Notes: generated from the sequence alone by a model not told the origin. Positions 18,950 through 46,414 are shown, numbered from the stretch's first letter. The stretch: 64,000 nt of DNA from an uncultured virus (IMG/VR IMGVR_UViG_3300034105_004634) (IMGVR_UViG_3300034105_004634), one strand, 5' to 3'. Made by a program: numbers and translations.

Positions 18950-19167
18950 CTTCGTACTGTTTAATTGTTTTTTTCATCATGAAGTATATAAATGAAAGTA
19001 TTACTGCACCAACCATTACGATTGAAGAAATGTCAGCAGTTTTGTCATTTTCCTTATAAATTAAGAATATGCTGAATATCCAGCATACAATTGCAAATAT
19101 CCCTGAGTTGCGGGTGAAATCTTTGGCCTCCTTTAATTTTTCTGGTTCCATATTTTTTTTAAATTAA

Positions 19168-19208
19168 AATCCGAATTATTACACAAATATATGGTAATAA
19201 TTCGGATT
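19168..19208. terminator. long inverted repeat overlapping a promoter; likely end of the ncRNA unit
   Basis: aatccgaattattac / gtaataattcggatt 15-bp arms. Confidence 0.55.
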
Positions 19209-19245
19209 AAAAAAATAACAATAACAATCATTCAAAAATAATTTT

Positions 19246-19595
19246 GGTATTATACTGGATAGCTTAGTTCTCCTATCTAAATTGGCAGTTTTATCTTGCG
19301 ATTTTTCTTGAGGTGTAGTGCAGTATCCCACTGCAGTTCTCTCCTTACCTAACTAATTACCAATGCGTCTATCCTGTAAAATACCGTTCATCACCACGAA
19401 GAACATTCATTAAGAAGCCTAGCCTGACCTTCCAGACAGTACATGTCACAATTAATTTGGCGCCGTGTTATGTAGTAGGCTTCTTTATACTCTAACCCTG
19501 GACTTGGACTCTGCCTCAAACGATTTTATTAGTGATCTGCGGAACCACCTTACTTCGTGTCCAGTTATCTTTGCAGCTTACAGAGACGCGGTTAG
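19246..19595 (-). ncRNA. large structured ncRNA of unknown class
   Basis: No ORF of 60 aa or more; nested helices 19246-19262/19369-19385 (15/17), 19412-19421/19476-19485 (10/10), 19492-19497/19590-19595, 19498-19503/19559-19564; GCAA and GGAA tetraloop hairpins on the minus strand. Confidence 0.7.
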
Positions 19596-19686
19596 TGAAG
19601 AAGATAGGGATCGAACCTATGGCACGTCTTTGTTCCTTACCTGAGTAAGTACTGAAGATTGCTCTAACCAACTGAGCTACTTCTCC
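19596..19686 (-). tRNA. tRNA-like element with an extended, non-canonical anticodon arm
   Basis: Acceptor GGAGAAG/CTTCTTC-A, D arm GCTC-AGTTGGTTA-GAGC, T arm ATAGG-TTCGATC-CCTAT; 24 nt replace the 7-nt anticodon loop; CCA not encoded. Confidence 0.8.
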
Positions 19687-19699
19687 TTTTTAATTATAT

Positions 19700-19733
19700 T
19701 GCAAATATACGAAATCCTTTCGGATTAAAAAAT
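19700..19733 (-). promoter_or_regulatory. TAnnTTTG-type promoter of the RNA unit
   Basis: TATATTTGCA ends 13 nt upstream of the 5' G of the tRNA-like element. Confidence 0.75.
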
Positions 19734-19748
19734 AAATTATGAAAAAAA

Positions 19749-20633
19749 TTACCTTTTTAATCCCTCCTTCATTGACTCTTCGGAAAGCTTTCTTGCCTCT
19801 TCCATCTCCAAAGTTGATAGGAATTTATCCAATGTTAAATCGCAATACTCATCTATCCAGTCACCTATAAAATAAAGATTTCTTGTTCCTTTAAGCACAC
19901 CAAACAGAATTGGATCCTTGGCCTTTTCAACCTCAGCCTTTGTCATCTGAGTTGATGTGTCATATTTGTCAAAATGCATAATAACATAATTGTCAAATAA
20001 TTCCTCGGCATCATATTTTTTCTTTTCTGTTATGACCTCATCAGGAATCATCCTAGCGTAGTTTTTCATCCATGTCATCTTTAGCATCTTACTGCCAAGA
20101 TTTGCTTTCTTGTAAAACTTAACGACGTCTTCCTCTGTAACATATTTAATCTCACCAACATCTAGTAGTTTAGCTTCGGCAAGAACACCATCCTTTTTAT
20201 CCCTTAGGATTTCTAAGAAAGCTATCTGACCGTTGTCCTTTGCAGTTTCTATTGCTTTAGTGTAGAATTCAACTGAATTTGGATTCACCTCCAGTGTTTT
20301 AATGGAATCCTTAACATCATTAAAGAATTCATCCACTGATTGATATCTTATCTTTTTAACCTTCTTATTGGGAAAAAGTGTCTCAGCAGCTTTTAGCCTG
20401 ATCCAGCTTTTGAAGGTGTGCTCATGCATATGTAAATAGTGGAAATAATCAACTGCACGTACCTCTATTGAATCAGTGAGAGAATTTGAGTCCCTTTCCA
20501 TAGCTCCGCCAATTAGAAAACTACTAATCCCGTTGGTTCCAGAAAGTTCTATTTCCGATCCCGATTGGACTGATTTTTTTGGAAGAGATATGAAGTTTTC
20601 AAATATCTCCAATTTGTTTGATGTAGTTATCAT
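19749..20633 (-). CDS. hypothetical phage protein
   Basis: 294-aa ORF; C-terminal KDPILFG...YFIGDWIDEYCDLT. Confidence 0.65.
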   Translation of the reverse strand: MITTSNKLEIFENFISLPKKSVQSGSEIELSGTNGISSFLIGGAMERDSNSLTDSIEVRAVDYFHYLHMHEHTFKSWIRLKAAETLFPNKKVKKIRYQSVDEFFNDVKDSIKTLEVNPNSVEFYTKAIETAKDNGQIAFLEILRDKKDGVLAEAKLLDVGEIKYVTEEDVVKFYKKANLGSKMLKMTWMKNYARMIPDEVITEKKKYDAEELFDNYVIMHFDKYDTSTQMTKAEVEKAKDPILFGVLKGTRNLYFIGDWIDEYCDLTLDKFLSTLEMEEARKLSEESMKEGLKR

Positions 20634-22747: not shown

Positions 22748-23185
22748 TCATTCTATGGTTCTTTTAGTGTCTCTATCTATATCCCTCTCTTTAATGCTCT
22801 GTTTCTTACTGTAGGTTTTTTTCCCTTTAGCAAGAGCTATCTCGATTTTAATTAAGCCCCTTTCATTGGTAAATATTCTAAATGGTACTATAGTCATTCC
22901 CCTATCCATGTCGGATTCAAGTTTTTTCAATTCCCTTCTATTTAGAAGCAATTTTCTTTCCCTTGCTGTTTCGTGGGTATACGTGGTGGAAATTGGGGTT
23001 ATATTCAGATTCTTCAGAAAAAGCTCCTTATCCCTAAAATAACAATACGAATCAACAAAGGAAACCCTTCCCCCTCTGATACCCTTTACCTCAGATCCCA
23101 TCAATTGCATGCCTGCCGTTAGGGTTCTAATGAACTCGTAATCAAACTTTGCTTTTCTGTTATTTATATTGATATTATTTGTCAT
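22748..23185 (-). CDS. smpB: SsrA-binding protein
   Basis: NRKAKFDY, AG..L.GSEVK, RERKLLL and AKGKK motifs. Confidence 0.92.
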   Translation of the reverse strand: MTNNININNRKAKFDYEFIRTLTAGMQLMGSEVKGIRGGRVSFVDSYCYFRDKELFLKNLNITPISTTYTHETARERKLLLNRRELKKLESDMDRGMTIVPFRIFTNERGLIKIEIALAKGKKTYSKKQSIKERDIDRDTKRTIE

Positions 23186-23188
23186 ATT

Positions 23189-23437
23189 CTATTCCTCTAT
23201 CCATGCAGCAGCAGTACGTGTACCACTTTCCACACAGGTTAAACCAAGATCCGTTTGTACATAGCAATTTGGATGCTCTGCAACAAGTTCATCGAATTTC
23301 TTGTCAGAAACACAAAGAACAACTATAATAGAATCTATAGGAGTAATACCTAGATTCTTTACCGCGTGTGCAACCTGTGAAGCCACCTTGCCCTCCGGCA
23401 TCTTCAAATTTCTTTTATAAATCGCTTTTATTTTCAT
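23189..23437 (-). CDS. peptidyl-tRNA hydrolase 2 (Pth2)-like
   Basis: LKMPEGKVASQVAHA and D.G.T.V..GT.TA motifs; start placed at ATG 23437. Confidence 0.75.
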   Translation of the reverse strand: MKIKAIYKRNLKMPEGKVASQVAHAVKNLGITPIDSIIVVLCVSDKKFDELVAEHPNCYVQTDLGLTCVESGTRTAAAWIEE

Positions 23438-23647
23438 TTTGTATTGTTTCAAATTTAACTTCCTCGAGAGTTGCAAGATCGTGAAAATTTCTTTCGAGTA
23501 TTGATGCAAATATACAAGAGACCATATTGGTGTTATACCAGTTTGCTGGTGCTAGATATTGTAAATTTTTACTTGCAGTTGGATTTTCTGCGATGTTATT
23601 TAGATATTCCTGATAGTATCTGTCAAGCTTATTCTCGTCTATTTTTA

Positions 23648-24304
23648 TCATGATCTTAGTTGCTCCATTAATTCATCCCTTTGCTTTAGATAATCCCTGG
23701 TGTCGAATTCTTCGTCCTCCATTATTCTAAAATCTTCCCAAATGTAATTAACACACCCAAAATCATCTATTCTTTGATTTTTCTTCAATTGTAAAGCAAA
23801 ATGTAGAATTCTTAATGCATGGAAAATGCCTTTCTTAGCACGATCTTTAAATCCATCTCTAGCTTGCATATCCGCTGTGTGCCACGATGCTGATACTTTG
23901 GAGATGATCTTTTTTGTCATCTCTCTGTTATTCCATTTCTGTACCTTAAATGGCCAGGTCTTCATAAGCACATCGTCTGGTTGCAGAGATAGGCATTCCA
24001 ATGTACTAATATCATAGTTGTTAATGGCATCAGTAAATCCGCTTCTGGAATAAAGAATACCCTGGATGTTTCTATTGTCGCTGGAAATGGCATTCTGTTT
24101 GAATGCACCGCTCCGAAGCATAGCTCCTTTGGTAACTATAATAAAATCATGATCTGAGTTTTGATCAGAGGTACCATAGACTCTACTGCCGTATCTGTAT
24201 ATGTTGAGAACCGGTTCATCAATATTAAGTGACTTTAGAATTAAACCAATATTGATCTCCTCATAATCGCTACAGATATTTTGTGATGAGTATTGATTTT
24301 CCAT
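23648..24304 (-). CDS. Pol-beta superfamily nucleotidyltransferase
   Basis: YGSRVYG...SDHDF signature; FHALRI. Confidence 0.75.
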   Translation of the reverse strand: MENQYSSQNICSDYEEINIGLILKSLNIDEPVLNIYRYGSRVYGTSDQNSDHDFIIVTKGAMLRSGAFKQNAISSDNRNIQGILYSRSGFTDAINNYDISTLECLSLQPDDVLMKTWPFKVQKWNNREMTKKIISKVSASWHTADMQARDGFKDRAKKGIFHALRILHFALQLKKNQRIDDFGCVNYIWEDFRIMEDEEFDTRDYLKQRDELMEQLRS

Positions 24305-28646: not shown

Positions 28647-29783
28647 TTATTCTTTTTCTTTAAGAAGGAAATTATTTGATATCACCTTGAAGCTTGTCTT
28701 CATATCATGGCTTCTAATAACATAACCTTCTCTCTCAGCAGAAGAATTAAGTACAGATTTACCTTCCGCAAACTTTAGAAGCTCGTCTATTGTTTCTGGT
28801 AGCGTAAATTCCTCATCAATAATAGGCACCATTTCCAAACCAAGTACTCTAACAGTTGATTTTAATTTTTCTAAATCAAGATATTCTTGTGTGTCGATAT
28901 TGAAAGCATTATAAACTCTAAGAGTTTGACCCTTGATTCTATATGGATTGCCCTGAATACCCTCACCTATAATTTCACACTGGCAGGCTAGATTTCCCCC
29001 CATAGCAAACATTTTTTCCTCAATCTCAAGTTCTCTAGCAACCTTCCAGAACGTATTTTCCTTTTTTGGTCTTTCTGTACCATCTTCGCACATAACAACG
29101 CCTTCGACAAAAGGCTCTGGACGGCAAAGATCTAAGTTTCTGGAGCAAACCCCAAATTCACCATTATAGATATAAAATGTTGAAGATGAACCATCTAACT
29201 TCTCAGTTACATAGTATTTTTGTTCCTTCATTCTGTCATAATTCTTTGCAAGATTTTGTACCCTCTCCTCGTCGGTTTTAGGAATGAAGCTTGGGAAATT
29301 TCCTTTAGCAACACCAGATAAACAGGCAGGCATTGGCGGATCCCATTTTGTAATATTAAGCATAGCTGTCACATCTGCGCCTTCCTCTATAACAAGAGCC
29401 CAGTCATATGGTCCCAATTGGTAGATTGGTCCATCAGGAGTTTGTAGATATCCAAGTTTTTCGTCCTCTTCCTCGCCTTCCAATATAGAGAGCGGAATGA
29501 TAAGTCCCTGACTGGTGGTTCCTCTTAATTTTATTGTTTTTAACCTAAATCCCTCCTGGTCCATCATTTTTCTATATGAACTCTTTCTGAGAAATTCGAA
29601 TTCCTCTCTGATCGGTAGAAACGAATCAACTTCGCAGTAGATAACAAAGTCACCAACCTTGTGACCAACTTCTTTACCCACAACAACCTTCCATCCATCC
29701 ACGATTGCCAATTCTATAAGGTCCGCACCTTCGATTGGCTGAAGATCACTGATCTTCCTAATACTTGCGAGTTTTCTTTCCAT
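28647..29783 (-). CDS. ATP-dependent RNA ligase (Rnl2/DRB0094-like)
   Basis: N-terminal MERKLASIR..GAD.IE domain; TEKLDGSS, CSRN, EIIG.GIQGN, REG.V and SFKVISN motifs. Confidence 0.88.
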   Translation of the reverse strand: MERKLASIRKISDLQPIEGADLIELAIVDGWKVVVGKEVGHKVGDFVIYCEVDSFLPIREEFEFLRKSSYRKMMDQEGFRLKTIKLRGTTSQGLIIPLSILEGEEEDEKLGYLQTPDGPIYQLGPYDWALVIEEGADVTAMLNITKWDPPMPACLSGVAKGNFPSFIPKTDEERVQNLAKNYDRMKEQKYYVTEKLDGSSSTFYIYNGEFGVCSRNLDLCRPEPFVEGVVMCEDGTERPKKENTFWKVARELEIEEKMFAMGGNLACQCEIIGEGIQGNPYRIKGQTLRVYNAFNIDTQEYLDLEKLKSTVRVLGLEMVPIIDEEFTLPETIDELLKFAEGKSVLNSSAEREGYVIRSHDMKTSFKVISNNFLLKEKE

Positions 29784-29784
29784 T

Positions 29785-30210
29785 TTATTTTTCCTTTTTG
29801 TTTTGTTCAATTTCTTTGAGCAGCATTTCAAGCTCCTCTATACCCTGATAAACTTTCTTTCTCTCCTTCTTTGGAAGTGAATCCTCCCAGATACCACTAT
29901 TATCAAGCTCGTCCAATGCAATCCTAATGGCTAGTGCCATTTTTTTTGTTATCTTTGCTTTCATTGATTCTTTTTATCTTATATTATAAAACCACATATC
30001 CATCAAGATTGGGATAAATCTATGGAGGTTACGACTCTCACCTTGATCCATTCCTAACTCACGTCCAGGATTTTCTTTATCTTACTTAACAAACATAACA
30101 CTTCTTGTAGCGTTGTAATAACAATCATAGCTTCCCAACCTTCTTGTTAGATTCTCAATTATTGGTGTTTATAATTTAGATTTACACTAAATCCTGGCAT
30201 ATCCCTCATA
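29785..30210 (-). pseudogene. decayed ORFs (frameshift and in-frame stops)
   Basis: MKAKITKK.. ORF continues plausibly in the -1 frame (EKVYQGIEELEMLLKE); upstream frame is broken by several stops. Confidence 0.4.
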
Positions 30211-30686
30211 ATTATCTATTACCTGTTTGTTTTTCTATATGCGGTTTGTTTTATTTCTTAATCCTACAGATCTCCAATTGGTGTTCAAGTTCTCTAACCT
30301 TATCTCTCTCCTCGTGAAATGCTATAAAATACATAATAGCGCAGATCGCTGCTGTTATGAATGGAAATAGCAATGGGTTTACCTTTTCTTTATTCTCCAT
30401 TTTGCTTTTTTAGAAATCTTGAAATCTTTTCAAATTTTGATGCATCATCCGGATTTAATATCATCTCGTCAAATGCTCCATATCGGCACTGTCTTCCAAA
30501 GATGTATCTTATTCCATAGCTAACTCTCTGCCAGAATGGTCTTTTAGCTAAGTGCAAGTGAAGATAAACGGTTGGATATACCTTACCATCAATTTCGTCT
30601 TCTGCGTAGAAAACCATCATCATATGGTCCGTGCTGTTACAATCACAAATCAATAAGTCTTTTTCTTGCGTCATAATATAATAAAA

Positions 30687-43774: not shown

Positions 43775-44737
43775 CTATTTATTAGGTGTTTTTATTGAGT
43801 TGTTCCAGAATGGTTTTTCATATTCAGGCCTTATTTGGTTCCAAATCAATCCCGAATAATCTGAACCATTATTGTGTGAAAGAAGGTAACCCCTTAATCT
43901 GTGATTTTTAACAAGTTCGAAGAATTCTTTATTATATGCTCTTAGCACTGAAGAATCGCGATCAAGTCTTTCTTCCTCAGTTGGTGTTTGACTTTTAACC
44001 TTCTTTATCAATAATTTATACTCAGCCTTTACGCTAGCATCTATGAAATTGAAATTAGTCTGTAGATCCTGCTCGATATTAGTTATCCATGCATCATACT
44101 CGTCAGGCACATCCTTCATTAGAGATCTATAATCCTTACCATCCCTCAACGAAGACCATATATCTAAGTTGGAAAATTGTGTCATAAGACCATGCAATCT
44201 AACGTATTCATCTCCTTTAGCCTTCACTCTTGTCCCATCAGAGAACCTTATAACGAACCCCTCCTGATTGTCGCCAATTAGAGATTTAATCTTATCGAGA
44301 TCCTTTATTCCATCATATCTTTTAGCACATTCGAATCCTGTTCTTTCGGCAAGAGATTTAAGTTCATTATATGGTGTTTCCCTGCCGCAATCATTCTTGA
44401 ATGCACCAAGAAGTACAAGTTTTTCTTCGTCACCGTAGTGACAGACGATCCTGTTTTTGGCGTAGATAATTTCAAAAAGAAATGTAAATTTCTCCGAGAA
44501 AACCCCCTTATAAGTTTCGTTCCTTTTCAGTATCTCCTTTGCGTAATCAGCGACATCCGAATAGAAAGATCCTTGAGTTGCTAGATGCCATTCCTCTCCG
44601 TAATTAAATAAAATACCAAGAGAATTATGAACAACTATACCATTTGCCAAAAAATTGTTATTTTTTTCAACCTCTATATCATATCTTTTAGAATTTGATT
44701 CTATTTTTTTAATAGATTTAATTTTTACTATTCTCAT
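43775..44737 (-). CDS. split-intein C-half (38 aa) fused to the RNA ligase 1 C-extein
   Basis: YDIEV..N.NF.ANG.VVHN/S intein blocks F/G, then SLGI..ATQGSF, FEII, EGFV and K.K...Y..LH ligase motifs. Confidence 0.88.
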   Translation of the reverse strand: MRIVKIKSIKKIESNSKRYDIEVEKNNNFLANGIVVHNSLGILFNYGEEWHLATQGSFYSDVADYAKEILKRNETYKGVFSEKFTFLFEIIYAKNRIVCHYGDEEKLVLLGAFKNDCGRETPYNELKSLAERTGFECAKRYDGIKDLDKIKSLIGDNQEGFVIRFSDGTRVKAKGDEYVRLHGLMTQFSNLDIWSSLRDGKDYRSLMKDVPDEYDAWITNIEQDLQTNFNFIDASVKAEYKLLIKKVKSQTPTEEERLDRDSSVLRAYNKEFFELVKNHRLRGYLLSHNNGSDYSGLIWNQIRPEYEKPFWNNSIKTPNK

Positions 44738-45791
44738 ATAACTTATTTATTATAAAAAATTCAAGATTACCTGCTTTTTTTTCCCTTTTAATCTCATCCT
44801 CCCATATGGTAATGACCTTATATCCATATTTTTCAGCCAAAGCTATTTTTTCAATGTCTCTATCCCATACGGAGGAAGCCGTAACTTGACCAATACCAGG
44901 ATAATTTATAAAATCTGTACCACTGTATTTATTTGGGTTTGCATGCCAATAATCACCATTTATTTCAATTATTAAATTCGTAAACCTTATTAAAATATCA
45001 TAGCTTTTACCTCCAATAAATCTTTGAGGATCATAAATTATCATATTATTATCTAGTATATTACGAACAGTAATTTCCAAACCAGAAACTAAATTAAAAT
45101 TCCTATTTATCCTTTCCTCCTTTTCTAAATCACTTAATCCTTTCCACCAACCAATCATTGCTTCCGAATGCTTTTTCCTGTTTTTATCTAGCTTAGAAAC
45201 ATTAGTAACACCATATTTTTCAAGGGATGTATTTTTTATTTTTTTTTCTATTTCTTCCCATTTTCCTGGAGTAAATTTTTTTCTGGAATCTGATATTTTT
45301 TCTGGATTTGTTGTTCTTAATTTTCCATATTTTACTAGCATTAGGTTATTTAGATATTCCTTAAAATGTGTGGTCTTGTATATGTTATCAACGCCGTAAT
45401 TTTCTATAAATGTTTTTCTTTTTTTATCTTTTATAACATCAGATTTGCTAGGATTATCAACTCCATATATTTTAATTGATGTTTCCTTTCTTTGCTCAAT
45501 GCACTTTTCTGAATTTGTTGAATCCGATAGACTCCTTTTTTTTATATTCATTATTTCGAATACTTCCAGAGATACCTTATATGGTATTGAATACTTTTTT
45601 TTTAGATCGGGTAAAGACATAAATTTGTCAACATAATCGGATATTAAATGGGTTACCTTTAAATTATAATTAAGCTCAACCATTGCTATGTACGAATCAT
45701 CCCGACTGATTTCACTATTACATTTGTATAAATGCTTTCTTGCTGAAAATTTGCATCCACAAAATGGACAAATCTTATTCTTTGCGTTCAT
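44718..45791 (-). mobile_element. free-standing endonuclease (Vsr/DUF559-like) between the intein halves
   Basis: YGVDN repeats; YD..I...IIEINGDYWH and D..K...A...GY.V..IWE motifs. Confidence 0.8.
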
Positions 45792-45838: not shown

Positions 45839-46414
45839 TTAATCATTCTTATCAAAAAATATAAGTTTTTCAGATCCATTTAGCTCATCTACTCTAATAT
45901 ATGATTTTGAATCAACAGACCATATTTTATGATTGCCGGTCAGCTTTAAGACAGATCCACTATACGTTTCTATTTCGTACCAATCATTGGAATTATCAAG
46001 TATACTAGATCCTAGAACCCTATTATATTCAAAGGTCCCATCCAAAATATTAAATGACATAACCATCCCAGTGTATTTGGAATCGCAAATTTCCTTTATT
46101 GTCATTTCGCCACATTCAGTTAAAACCAGAGTTTCCTCGTGGCAGCATCCATCTAATTTTTCAAAGACCTCAAATGGGAGATTTGGAAAATTATCGGATT
46201 CAATATTGAAAAACTTAGGGAATGTTTTAGCCACAACGTTTCCTTCCGTGTCAAGCACAGTACCCCGCATATTCATCGTGATATTGTCCCATGTCCATTC
46301 GAACTGACAATTTCTAGAATATTTATATAGTGCTATAGGAAGTTCTTTATGCTCGCATTTATCAAGAAGTCCTTTGGCTACATATTCGTTAATGGTTTCA
46401 ATATTATATTTCAT
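45839..46414 (-). CDS. RNA ligase 1 N-extein (89 aa) fused to the split-intein N-half (102 aa)
   Basis: KFFN...EKLDG then C-CHEET.V (block A) and LKLTGNHKI (block B TxxH). Confidence 0.88.
   Translation of the reverse strand: MKYNIETINEYVAKGLLDKCEHKELPIALYKYSRNCQFEWTWDNITMNMRGTVLDTEGNVVAKTFPKFFNIESDNFPNLPFEVFEKLDGCCHEETLVLTECGEMTIKEICDSKYTGMVMSFNILDGTFEYNRVLGSSILDNSNDWYEIETYSGSVLKLTGNHKIWSVDSKSYIRVDELNGSEKLIFFDKND

Follow-up and report, generated by a model that had tools for sequence, protein, structure and literature searches.

A non-coding, RNA-only unit lies at positions 19165–19709, minus strand, in a 64,000-nucleotide (nt) stretch of DNA (hereafter, the window) from the uncultured virus IMGVR_UViG_3300034105_004634 (IMG/VR), a huge lake phage. 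The unit is a genuine phage RNA locus, as yet uncatalogued. From 19709 in minus-strand order, it comprises an TATATTTG box, a transfer RNA (tRNA) mimic designated T2, three structured modules designated D1, D2 and B, a U-rich linker and a 15-base-pair (bp) AU-rich hairpin (Table 1). We give an even chance to the proposal that the unit is a tRNA-operon-like array of these four separable RNA genes, and that its products are tRNA mimics acting in a conflict over tRNA. The supporting evidence consists of the architecture, the modularity, the conservation of the upper half of the tRNA fold, and the covariation of D2 and of the outer helix of B, while transcription, processing sites and role are what we infer from it.

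Table 1 Features of the RNA-only unit and its surroundings (positions in the window).
Feature	Position	Strand	Basis or remark
Short hairpin, 5-bp stem and GAAA loop	19713-19726	-	Read from sequence; between the upstream 294-amino-acid (aa) gene and the promoter box
TATATTTG box (TAnnTTTG type), putative promoter	19702-19709	-	~16 nt upstream of T2 5' end
T2, 91-nt tRNA mimic	19596-19686	-	Rfam tRNA, ARAGORN, fold
Rod in place of anticodon arm	19627-19658	-	Predicted fold
D1, ~104-nt module	19492-19595	-	Alignment A4; closed by CUAACC/GGUUAG
CUAACC/GGUUAG repeat	within 19485-19497 / 19590-19602		Repeat finder
D2, 74-nt three-way junction	19412-19485	-	Alignment A3, covariation, model R1
10-bp perfect core	within 19409-19421 / 19476-19488		Repeat finder
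Small hairpin at B start	19386-19404	-	Seven pairs, no compensatory change
B, ~140-nt multi-branched module	19246-19385 (19404-19246 with start hairpin)	-	Alignment A5, fold
Helix of 15/17 pairs	19246-19262 / 19369-19385		Repeat finder
15-bp perfect AU-rich hairpin, 11-nt loop	19168-19208 (arms 19168-19182 / 19194-19208)	-	Repeat finder
SmpB	22748-23185	-	Family search (5e-47)
Weak PTH2-like frame	23192-23509	-	Family search (3.7e-05)
Second nucleotidyltransferase	23648-24304	-	Family search
CCA-adding enzyme, 245 aa	24491-25228	-	5 kb from RNA unit
RNA ligase	28647-29831	-	Family search

Relatives of the locus were located through the 294-aa protein encoded upstream, for which IMG/VR yielded 106 relatives and metagenome contigs 206, with 80 loci retained from each set; blastn against GenBank phages returned no match to the RNA region. 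Similarity to the RNAs was found only beside the closest relatives of this protein, at L001, L002, L003 (the same as L095), L007, L096, L094 and L097. L001 and L002 are complete phage records with terminal repeats (434.5 and 430.1 kb), and the L094 matches are identical to L096 over the shared part. At L093 similarity was confined to the contig edge, and the more distant L098 carries a T2-like unit only. A link between the RNAs and the 294-aa protein itself, which matches a PHROG 'transposase' (2e-20) and nothing in PDB or NCBIfam, was considered and rejected, the RNAs being present beside its closest relatives alone.

Among these relatives, whole units are inserted or deleted exactly at the domain borders, which leads us to read the locus as an array of four separable RNA genes. 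In L002 and L003, ~360 nt with three T-arm-bearing tRNA-like units are inserted between D2 and B. L096 and L094 carry ~300 nt between D1 and D2, made up of an unrelated module and a 153-nt tRNA-like unit, and an additional ~110-nt tRNA-like unit between D2 and B. B is present without D1 and D2 in L007, and the window has the most reduced version of the array. The domain borders drawn in the original prediction, made by a model from the sequence alone, are thus genuine module borders. All the helices that it listed were likewise recovered, by the repeat finder (Table 1) or, for the inner hairpins, in predicted folds.

That D2 is a new motif tied to phage tRNA arrays is well supported. It is built from a closing helix P1 (10 bp in the window), an arm P2, which has a 13-nt loop as well as an internal loop (AA/AC), and a 5-bp arm P3. 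Over the 12 distinct sequences of alignment A3, 93.8% of the cells of the three-way junction are paired, and compensatory changes on both sides are seen in 11 of its 24 pairs. The covariation score was 0.366, compared with 0.158 for shuffles (0/500 reaching the observed value) and 0.05–0.10 for slid controls, which is more than chance would give. Nine of the ten pairs of the closing helix covary while the inner core is invariant, and the strand is fixed by the frequent G-U pairs.

The model R1 scores the window copy of D2 at 103.1 bits. A search of IMG/VR with the core pattern returned 12 contigs, three from this lineage and nine others (9.6–166 kb), and the 62-nt core is identical across unrelated phage contexts. 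Exactly one copy was detected by R1 in each of five of five whole records, only the known copies were found in 61 sources, and no D2 was found at the other searched loci of relatives of the 294-aa protein. A tRNA or tRNA-like gene begins 3–5 nt past the closing helix in 10 of the 12 contexts, the exceptions being the window and L001, where B comes next; in the other phages, D2 stands at the head of, or inside, ordinary tRNA arrays. Rfam searches of seven of these other D2 loci gave tRNA-clan matches and two spurious plastid-family matches. In representative prokaryote genomes the strict pattern had no matches and a loose one had three chance-like matches, two without a model match and one at 17.8 bits without P3. 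The P2 loop is palindromic, with GGCGCC in nine sequences and CACGTG in two. Separately, five of the loci (L174, L178, L183, L173 and L179) share a conserved stretch of ~90 nt, located ~80–170 nt past D2 and after the first tRNA, which starts ...GGTTCGACC(C/T)TCTACCAAATGTG and has no Rfam match.

T2 matches the Rfam tRNA model (RF00005) with a score of 45.2 bits (gathering score, 29), has 26 nt at the place of 9 in the model, and is labeled 'tRNA-???' by ARAGORN. Its fold has a 7-bp acceptor stem, a D arm of normal form containing GG, a variable loop of 5 nt and a T arm, and the discriminator is A; the acceptor and T stems are fully paired, and CCA is not encoded. The place of the anticodon arm is taken by a rod in which proximal (4 bp) and distal (5 bp) stems are separated by a 5x5 internal loop (CAGUA/GAACA) and the end is capped by UCAG; the 7-nt loop and U33 of a decoding anticodon arm are not present in T2. 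The claim that the unit opens with an anticodon-less tRNA mimic is borne out by these results. In homologues the internal loop is retained and the cap is UUCG (L096) or a 12-nt loop on a 7-bp stem (L097); since it varies in this way, the cap is not an anticodon. Within the internal loop, AGUA faces GAA in the orientation of what we take to be a loop-E/sarcin-ricin motif. An intron-bearing decoding tRNA was rejected on reading the sequence, because no excision yields a U33 loop, a bulge-helix-bulge is lacking and the cap is variable.

Comparison of 14 tRNA-like units, taken from seven related loci as well as the window, extends this pattern. Twelve have a fully paired acceptor stem and the other two a single mismatch in it, and acceptor stems of homologous units differ through paired changes. 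All 14 have a paired T stem and a T-loop reading TTCRANN, and 13 have A as the discriminator. A 7-nt anticodon loop is lacking throughout: in some units there is no arm, and in others a rod takes its place or it is expanded by 54–71 extra nt. The units score 29–47 bits against the tRNA model, and ARAGORN calls none of them across 12 related loci; the genomes of the relatives carry ~30 canonical tRNAs (45–73 bits) in a separate cluster. The tRNA mimics are clearly maintained by selection although they lack an anticodon. The T2-rod pattern, like those of D1 and B, returned the same lineage or nothing in IMG/VR.

D1 starts 1 nt after the discriminator A of T2, a position that holds for its closing helix in 6/6 homologues. 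Alignment A4 contains six sequences at 93% identity, and the consensus fold has 35 pairs, of which one is compensatory. B is closed by a 16-bp interrupted helix enclosing inner hairpins, one of them GNRA-capped (GCAA in five sequences, GAAA in one). Alignment A5 contains six sequences with 90% mean column identity, and its four compensatory pairs all lie in the outer helix of B, which accordingly has covariation support.

The RNA region is non-coding. No open reading frame (ORF) of at least 60 aa is present between 19152 and 19748, and this 597-nt gap is the longest between ORFs of at least 70 aa across the window; the runner-up, 29832–30389, contains short ORFs. The best Pfam E-value among five short ORFs inside the RNA region is only 0.07, and their interpretation as genes was rejected, given the lack of family matches and the shift in frame, among relatives, of a 17-codon ATG frame located where B starts. 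A dedicated RNA-only unit occupying the longest stretch without coding signal, as first proposed, is therefore sustained.

A search of the whole window at Rfam gathering scores gave a single match, the tRNA. Relaxing the threshold to E-values up to 10 for 19100–19800 gave six matches, of which the tRNA is meaningful and the other five (E at least 2) belong to unrelated families. The reader's failure to place the RNA by eye is thus upheld: the transfer-messenger RNA (tmRNA), RNase P RNA, group I intron, GOLLD and ROOL models were unmatched at this threshold. A literature search, which did not extend to supplements, found no description of these RNAs.

Two known identities were considered and set aside. 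The tmRNA model (RF00023) matched neither the window at its gathering score nor 19100–19800 at E up to 10, and ARAGORN reported no tmRNA. T2 has A3-U70 and G2-U71 rather than G3:U70, and its tRNA-like domain is contiguous. These features, together with a tmRNA elsewhere in relatives, led us to reject the unit as the tmRNA partner of the nearby SmpB; the unit is not tmRNA because relatives carry one elsewhere. This is a full-length tmRNA-like gene with G3:U70 at L081 1501–1965 (G001 400049–400513), also found at L082. It scores 41.4 bits, under the Rfam gathering score of 47, and is missed by ARAGORN; by its sequence, it is a divergent phage tmRNA. RNase P RNA came into question as the GAGGCAGAGUCC strand of D1 resembles the conserved P4 strand, and was rejected as a complementary partner was not found and Rfam gave no match.

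RNase P, RNase Z and CCA-adding enzymes recognize the acceptor/T-arm half and elbow of tRNA, the anticodon arm being dispensable, so the transcript could be matured like that of a tRNA operon. In the mechanism we propose, RNase P would cut at the first G of T2, and RNase Z-type cleavage after discriminator A73 would free T2 and create the 5' end of D1. CCA would then be added to T2, possibly by the phage's own CCA-adding enzyme. In relatives, further tRNA-like units would punctuate the remaining modules. Processing from the tRNA-like leader, raised as a possibility in the original prediction, is plausible on sequence grounds, because the closing helix of D1 starts right after the discriminator A in all six homologues. 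The products would be tRNA look-alikes and companions engaged in a phage conflict over tRNAs, in which the mimics would occupy proteins that recognize the upper half of tRNA and would never decode. That the anticodon arm is replaced in specific and conserved ways argues for the mimics having their own partners and not being mere punctuation.

Family searches place the RNA unit in an island of translation and RNA-repair genes. SmpB, the PTH2-like frame, the CCA-adding enzyme, the second nucleotidyltransferase and an RNA ligase all lie within 10 kb upstream of the unit (Table 1). Two RNA ligase families occur in the island, one of them intein-interrupted. A P-loop kinase adjoins a metallophosphoesterase, there are two HAD_SAK_2 proteins, and NADAR, cREC, Nudix, NAMPT and ClpP are also encoded. 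As a side observation, an Rnl1-type RNA ligase appears split over three minus-strand ORFs (43775–44737, 44718–45791 and 45842–46414), the N-terminal piece ending in an intein N-part, the middle ORF having a homing-endonuclease/DUF7487 domain, and the last ORF containing the intein C-part and the ligase C-terminus.

The elements that bound the unit are conserved. The block containing the 19713–19726 hairpin is shared with relatives, and the block around the TATATTTG box and the 15-bp hairpin are each conserved in 5/5 aligned loci. The loop of the latter hairpin contains the next TATATTTG box (19184–19191), ahead of a 73-aa gene, and the hairpin is probably both the end of the RNA unit and the start of the unit of this downstream gene. 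The window also contains recurring intergenic cassettes composed of a T-run, an AATCCG...CGGATT hairpin and an TATATTTG box, among them those at the two hairpins flanking the RNA unit.

Further features were noted in the relatives and elsewhere in the window. In L001, L003, L007 and L096 the promoter is followed by a small Cys-rich ORF, then by a gap of at most 5 nt, a 57–59-nt tRNA-like unit without any anticodon arm, and another conserved module. The Cys-rich ORF (82–83 aa; L096 4924–5175, L001 3950–4198) has a conserved tail ...KCSY[DE]AWGTCQSPCNGDC; it is absent from the window and matches no Pfam family. In L098, the most distant of the relatives, three tandem units of ~100 nt at ~1650–2000 each contain a variable-stem hairpin followed by GTACGG(C/T)AGAATTTT, and the T1-T2 intervening module of L001–L003 and L096 has one hairpin similar to that of these tandem units. 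The second-longest ORF-poor gap of the window contains, at 29965–30250 (minus strand), two short ORFs and ~270 nt without an obvious frame, with no Rfam match at gathering score.

Several observations weigh against the array of tRNA-like genes proposed here. In the window, D1, D2 and B follow one another with no tRNA-like unit in between, and these three may remain linked. Relatives are few, at most seven distinct sequences for each module except D2, and they are 85–93% identical. Neither D1 nor the interior of B adds covariation support: the D1 test was not significant (85/500 shuffles), and the inner helices of B are invariant, so that for B the covariation expected of a structured RNA was obtained in the outer helix and not within it. 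The region also folds no better than shuffled controls, with a minus-strand z-score of +0.41 (63/100 shuffles fold as well) and a plus-strand z-score of -1.19. The promoter box pointed out earlier is present, but the motif is not enriched in the window, with 85 TAnnTTTG observed against 80.5 expected; for TATATTTG, 13 copies were observed against 8.05 expected, a number reached by 9/100 shuffles, although 10 of the 13 copies are on the coding strand. The 15-bp hairpin is not called by a consensus terminator scan. Contigs matching 19418–19479 at 100% identity, with two other sets of flanks, occur in three of four RNA-library runs, these three being freshwater runs that come from three studies, and one run contains the B region of a relative; all four runs consist of contigs, which show presence and carry no information on transcription, ends or strand. 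Finally, the statements on tmRNA, the tRNA cluster and Ro60 rest on the genomes of relatives, and the role in tRNA conflict is drawn from the gene neighborhood alone.

The alternatives all appear less probable than the array of separable genes. In one further reading, which we regard as unlikely, D2 would be a new cis-acting RNA class for phage tRNA arrays, present in one copy per genome with its invariant 62-nt core and its fixed 3–5-nt spacing to a tRNA. It would catalyze or guide maturation of the adjacent tRNA end, or else reprogram the transcribing polymerase, and the surrounding mimics would be acceptor-end decoys protecting phage translation from host tRNA-attacking enzymes.

It is rather improbable that the RNAs are Y-RNA-like partners of a phage Ro60 (TROVE) protein, with the mimics tethering Ro60 to other factors as YrlA does. 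TROVE matches (34 bits summed) are present in a 530-aa open frame of each of the complete relatives G001 and G002, and Rfam detects no Y RNA next to these frames. YrlA mimics the D arm, T arm and acceptor stem of tRNA and is found in phages (PMC4201824), and T2 likewise has tRNA-like D and T arms. The CUGGAC...CACGAA of D1 is moreover reminiscent of a Ro-binding strand. However, the GNCGAAN0-1G Ro60-binding motif is absent, the nearest D1 sequence being CACGAAG in the window and CACGAAC or CACGAAA in relatives, and Y_RNA gave no Rfam match in 19100–19800 at E up to 10. The TROVE frames lie inside the main tRNA cluster (L210, G001 ~223.9–224.6 kb; L209, G002 ~201.4–202.2 kb), and in G001 the RNA unit, at ~56–57 kb, is ~167 kb away. 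No TROVE domain was detected among the 90 window ORFs scanned, and the D2-bearing phages G003 and G004 have no TROVE match. The topology is also the reverse of that of YrlA: in T2 the acceptor is open, and it is the anticodon side that is closed.

A single large ornate RNA of ~350–460 nt, fused to the tRNA-like leader as one molecule in the manner of GOLLD or ROOL, was the form in which the locus had originally been described, and we now consider it improbable. All parts do lie in one promoter-to-hairpin unit, D1, D2 and B are uninterrupted by a tRNA-like unit in both the window and L001, and nested helices are present. Against this, 110–360 nt of other units part the domains in relatives, where such units are inserted and deleted between them; D2 occurs alone in nine other phage contigs, and B occurs without D1 and D2 in L007. 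Consensus folds predict no helix between domains, and no large RNA in Rfam is matched. The fused, ~350-nt GOLLD/ROOL-type molecule is therefore abandoned in favor of the separable modules.

Equally improbable, in our estimate, is that D1, D2 or both mature the ends of neighboring tRNA-like genes, as new RNAs that cleave themselves or guide an RNase, D1 cutting its own 5' end like a theta ribozyme, of the hepatitis delta virus (HDV)-like type, and D2 acting on the tRNA 3–5 nt downstream. The position of D1 agrees with this in 6/6 homologues, since it begins right after the discriminator and theta ribozymes are located no more than 5 nt from the 3' ends of phage tRNAs (PMC10879173); the identity of the D2 core in unrelated contexts and its fixed short spacing to the next tRNA agree as well. 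On the other side, no Rfam ribozyme is matched in this region at E up to 10, or near D2 in seven other loci, and there is no HDV-family match. Our reading of the folds gives D1 a helix order unlike the HDV-like nested double pseudoknot, its closing strand being at the extreme 3' end. The junction strands of D2 are 1, 2 and 0 nt and its conserved letters lie within helices, unlike the cores of known small ribozymes, and the window D2 is not succeeded by a tRNA-like unit.

Least probable of all is that the locus consists of decaying tRNA-cluster remnants and spacer DNA with no present function, as the fast-changing locus content among close relatives and the low tRNA scores of the units might suggest, given that upper-half tRNA features are intact in 14/14 units with paired acceptor-stem changes, that the anticodon arms are replaced by stable capped structures and not degraded, and that D2 combines strong compensatory change with a core conserved at 100% across unrelated phages.

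It has been known for fifty years that phages maintain small stable RNAs next to their tRNA genes, as exemplified by T4 rnaC and rnaD, whose function is unknown. The locus described here offers a comparative handle on this puzzle, as a stand-alone operon made up of such RNAs only, and the anticodon-less tRNA mimics, clearly under selection, offer a second. The homologues of D2 are diverse enough for a covariance model and in vitro study. The tRNA-repair and ribosome-rescue island around the unit suggests a concrete hypothesis, in which tRNA mimicry is a phage counter-measure.

The best analogy is with T4 rnaC (species 1, 139 nt) and rnaD (species 2, 119 nt), which are likewise structured non-coding RNAs directly after a tRNA, in their case where a phage tRNA transcription unit ends. 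In T4, rnaD starts 1 nt past tRNA-Arg, the last of the cluster, and rnaC starts 6 nt past rnaD; the fold of rnaC has a T arm beside an end-closing helix and no anticodon. The two systems share no sequence or model similarity, with R1 reaching at best 7.2 bits (E 0.68) on the T4 region. Unlike T4, the window unit has its own putative promoter, contains zero decoding tRNAs and is modular across relatives. GOLLD and ROOL are also phage-associated and located near tRNA genes, with largely unknown function. They differ in being much larger single RNAs, whereas the parts of the window unit are independently mobile modules without an Rfam match to either.

A review of jumbo phages covers tRNAs, RNA repair and Ro-type proteins that have a tRNA-like partner, and leaves such arrays unmentioned (PMC7824862). 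Among RNAs of that kind, YrlA resembles T2 in being a tRNA mimic that keeps D-arm, T-arm and acceptor features without an anticodon, and some YrlA RNAs are cut by RNase P and given CCA (PMC4201824). It differs in that its Ro-binding stem, on the anticodon side, is made by the ends of the RNA and its acceptor is closed, while the acceptor of T2 is open; the window unit, for its part, lacks the Ro60-binding motif and an adjacent TROVE gene. Theta ribozymes are small RNAs for which cutting of the tRNA 3' trailer is proposed (PMC10879173). D1 occupies the same position relative to T2, but it is about twice as long, has another helix order and is unmatched by the HDV family in Rfam.

Non-decoding tRNA-shaped processing signals, cut by RNase P and RNase Z so as to set the ends of neighboring RNAs, are also known: the t-elements of plant mitochondria (PMC1920247), the MALAT1 mascRNA and the tRNA-miRNA transcripts of gammaherpesvirus 68. 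All these systems are eukaryotic or organellar, and processing of the window unit is predicted. In the mimics of the window unit, by contrast, the structures that replace the anticodon arm are specific and conserved, suggesting that these mimics have a role of their own.

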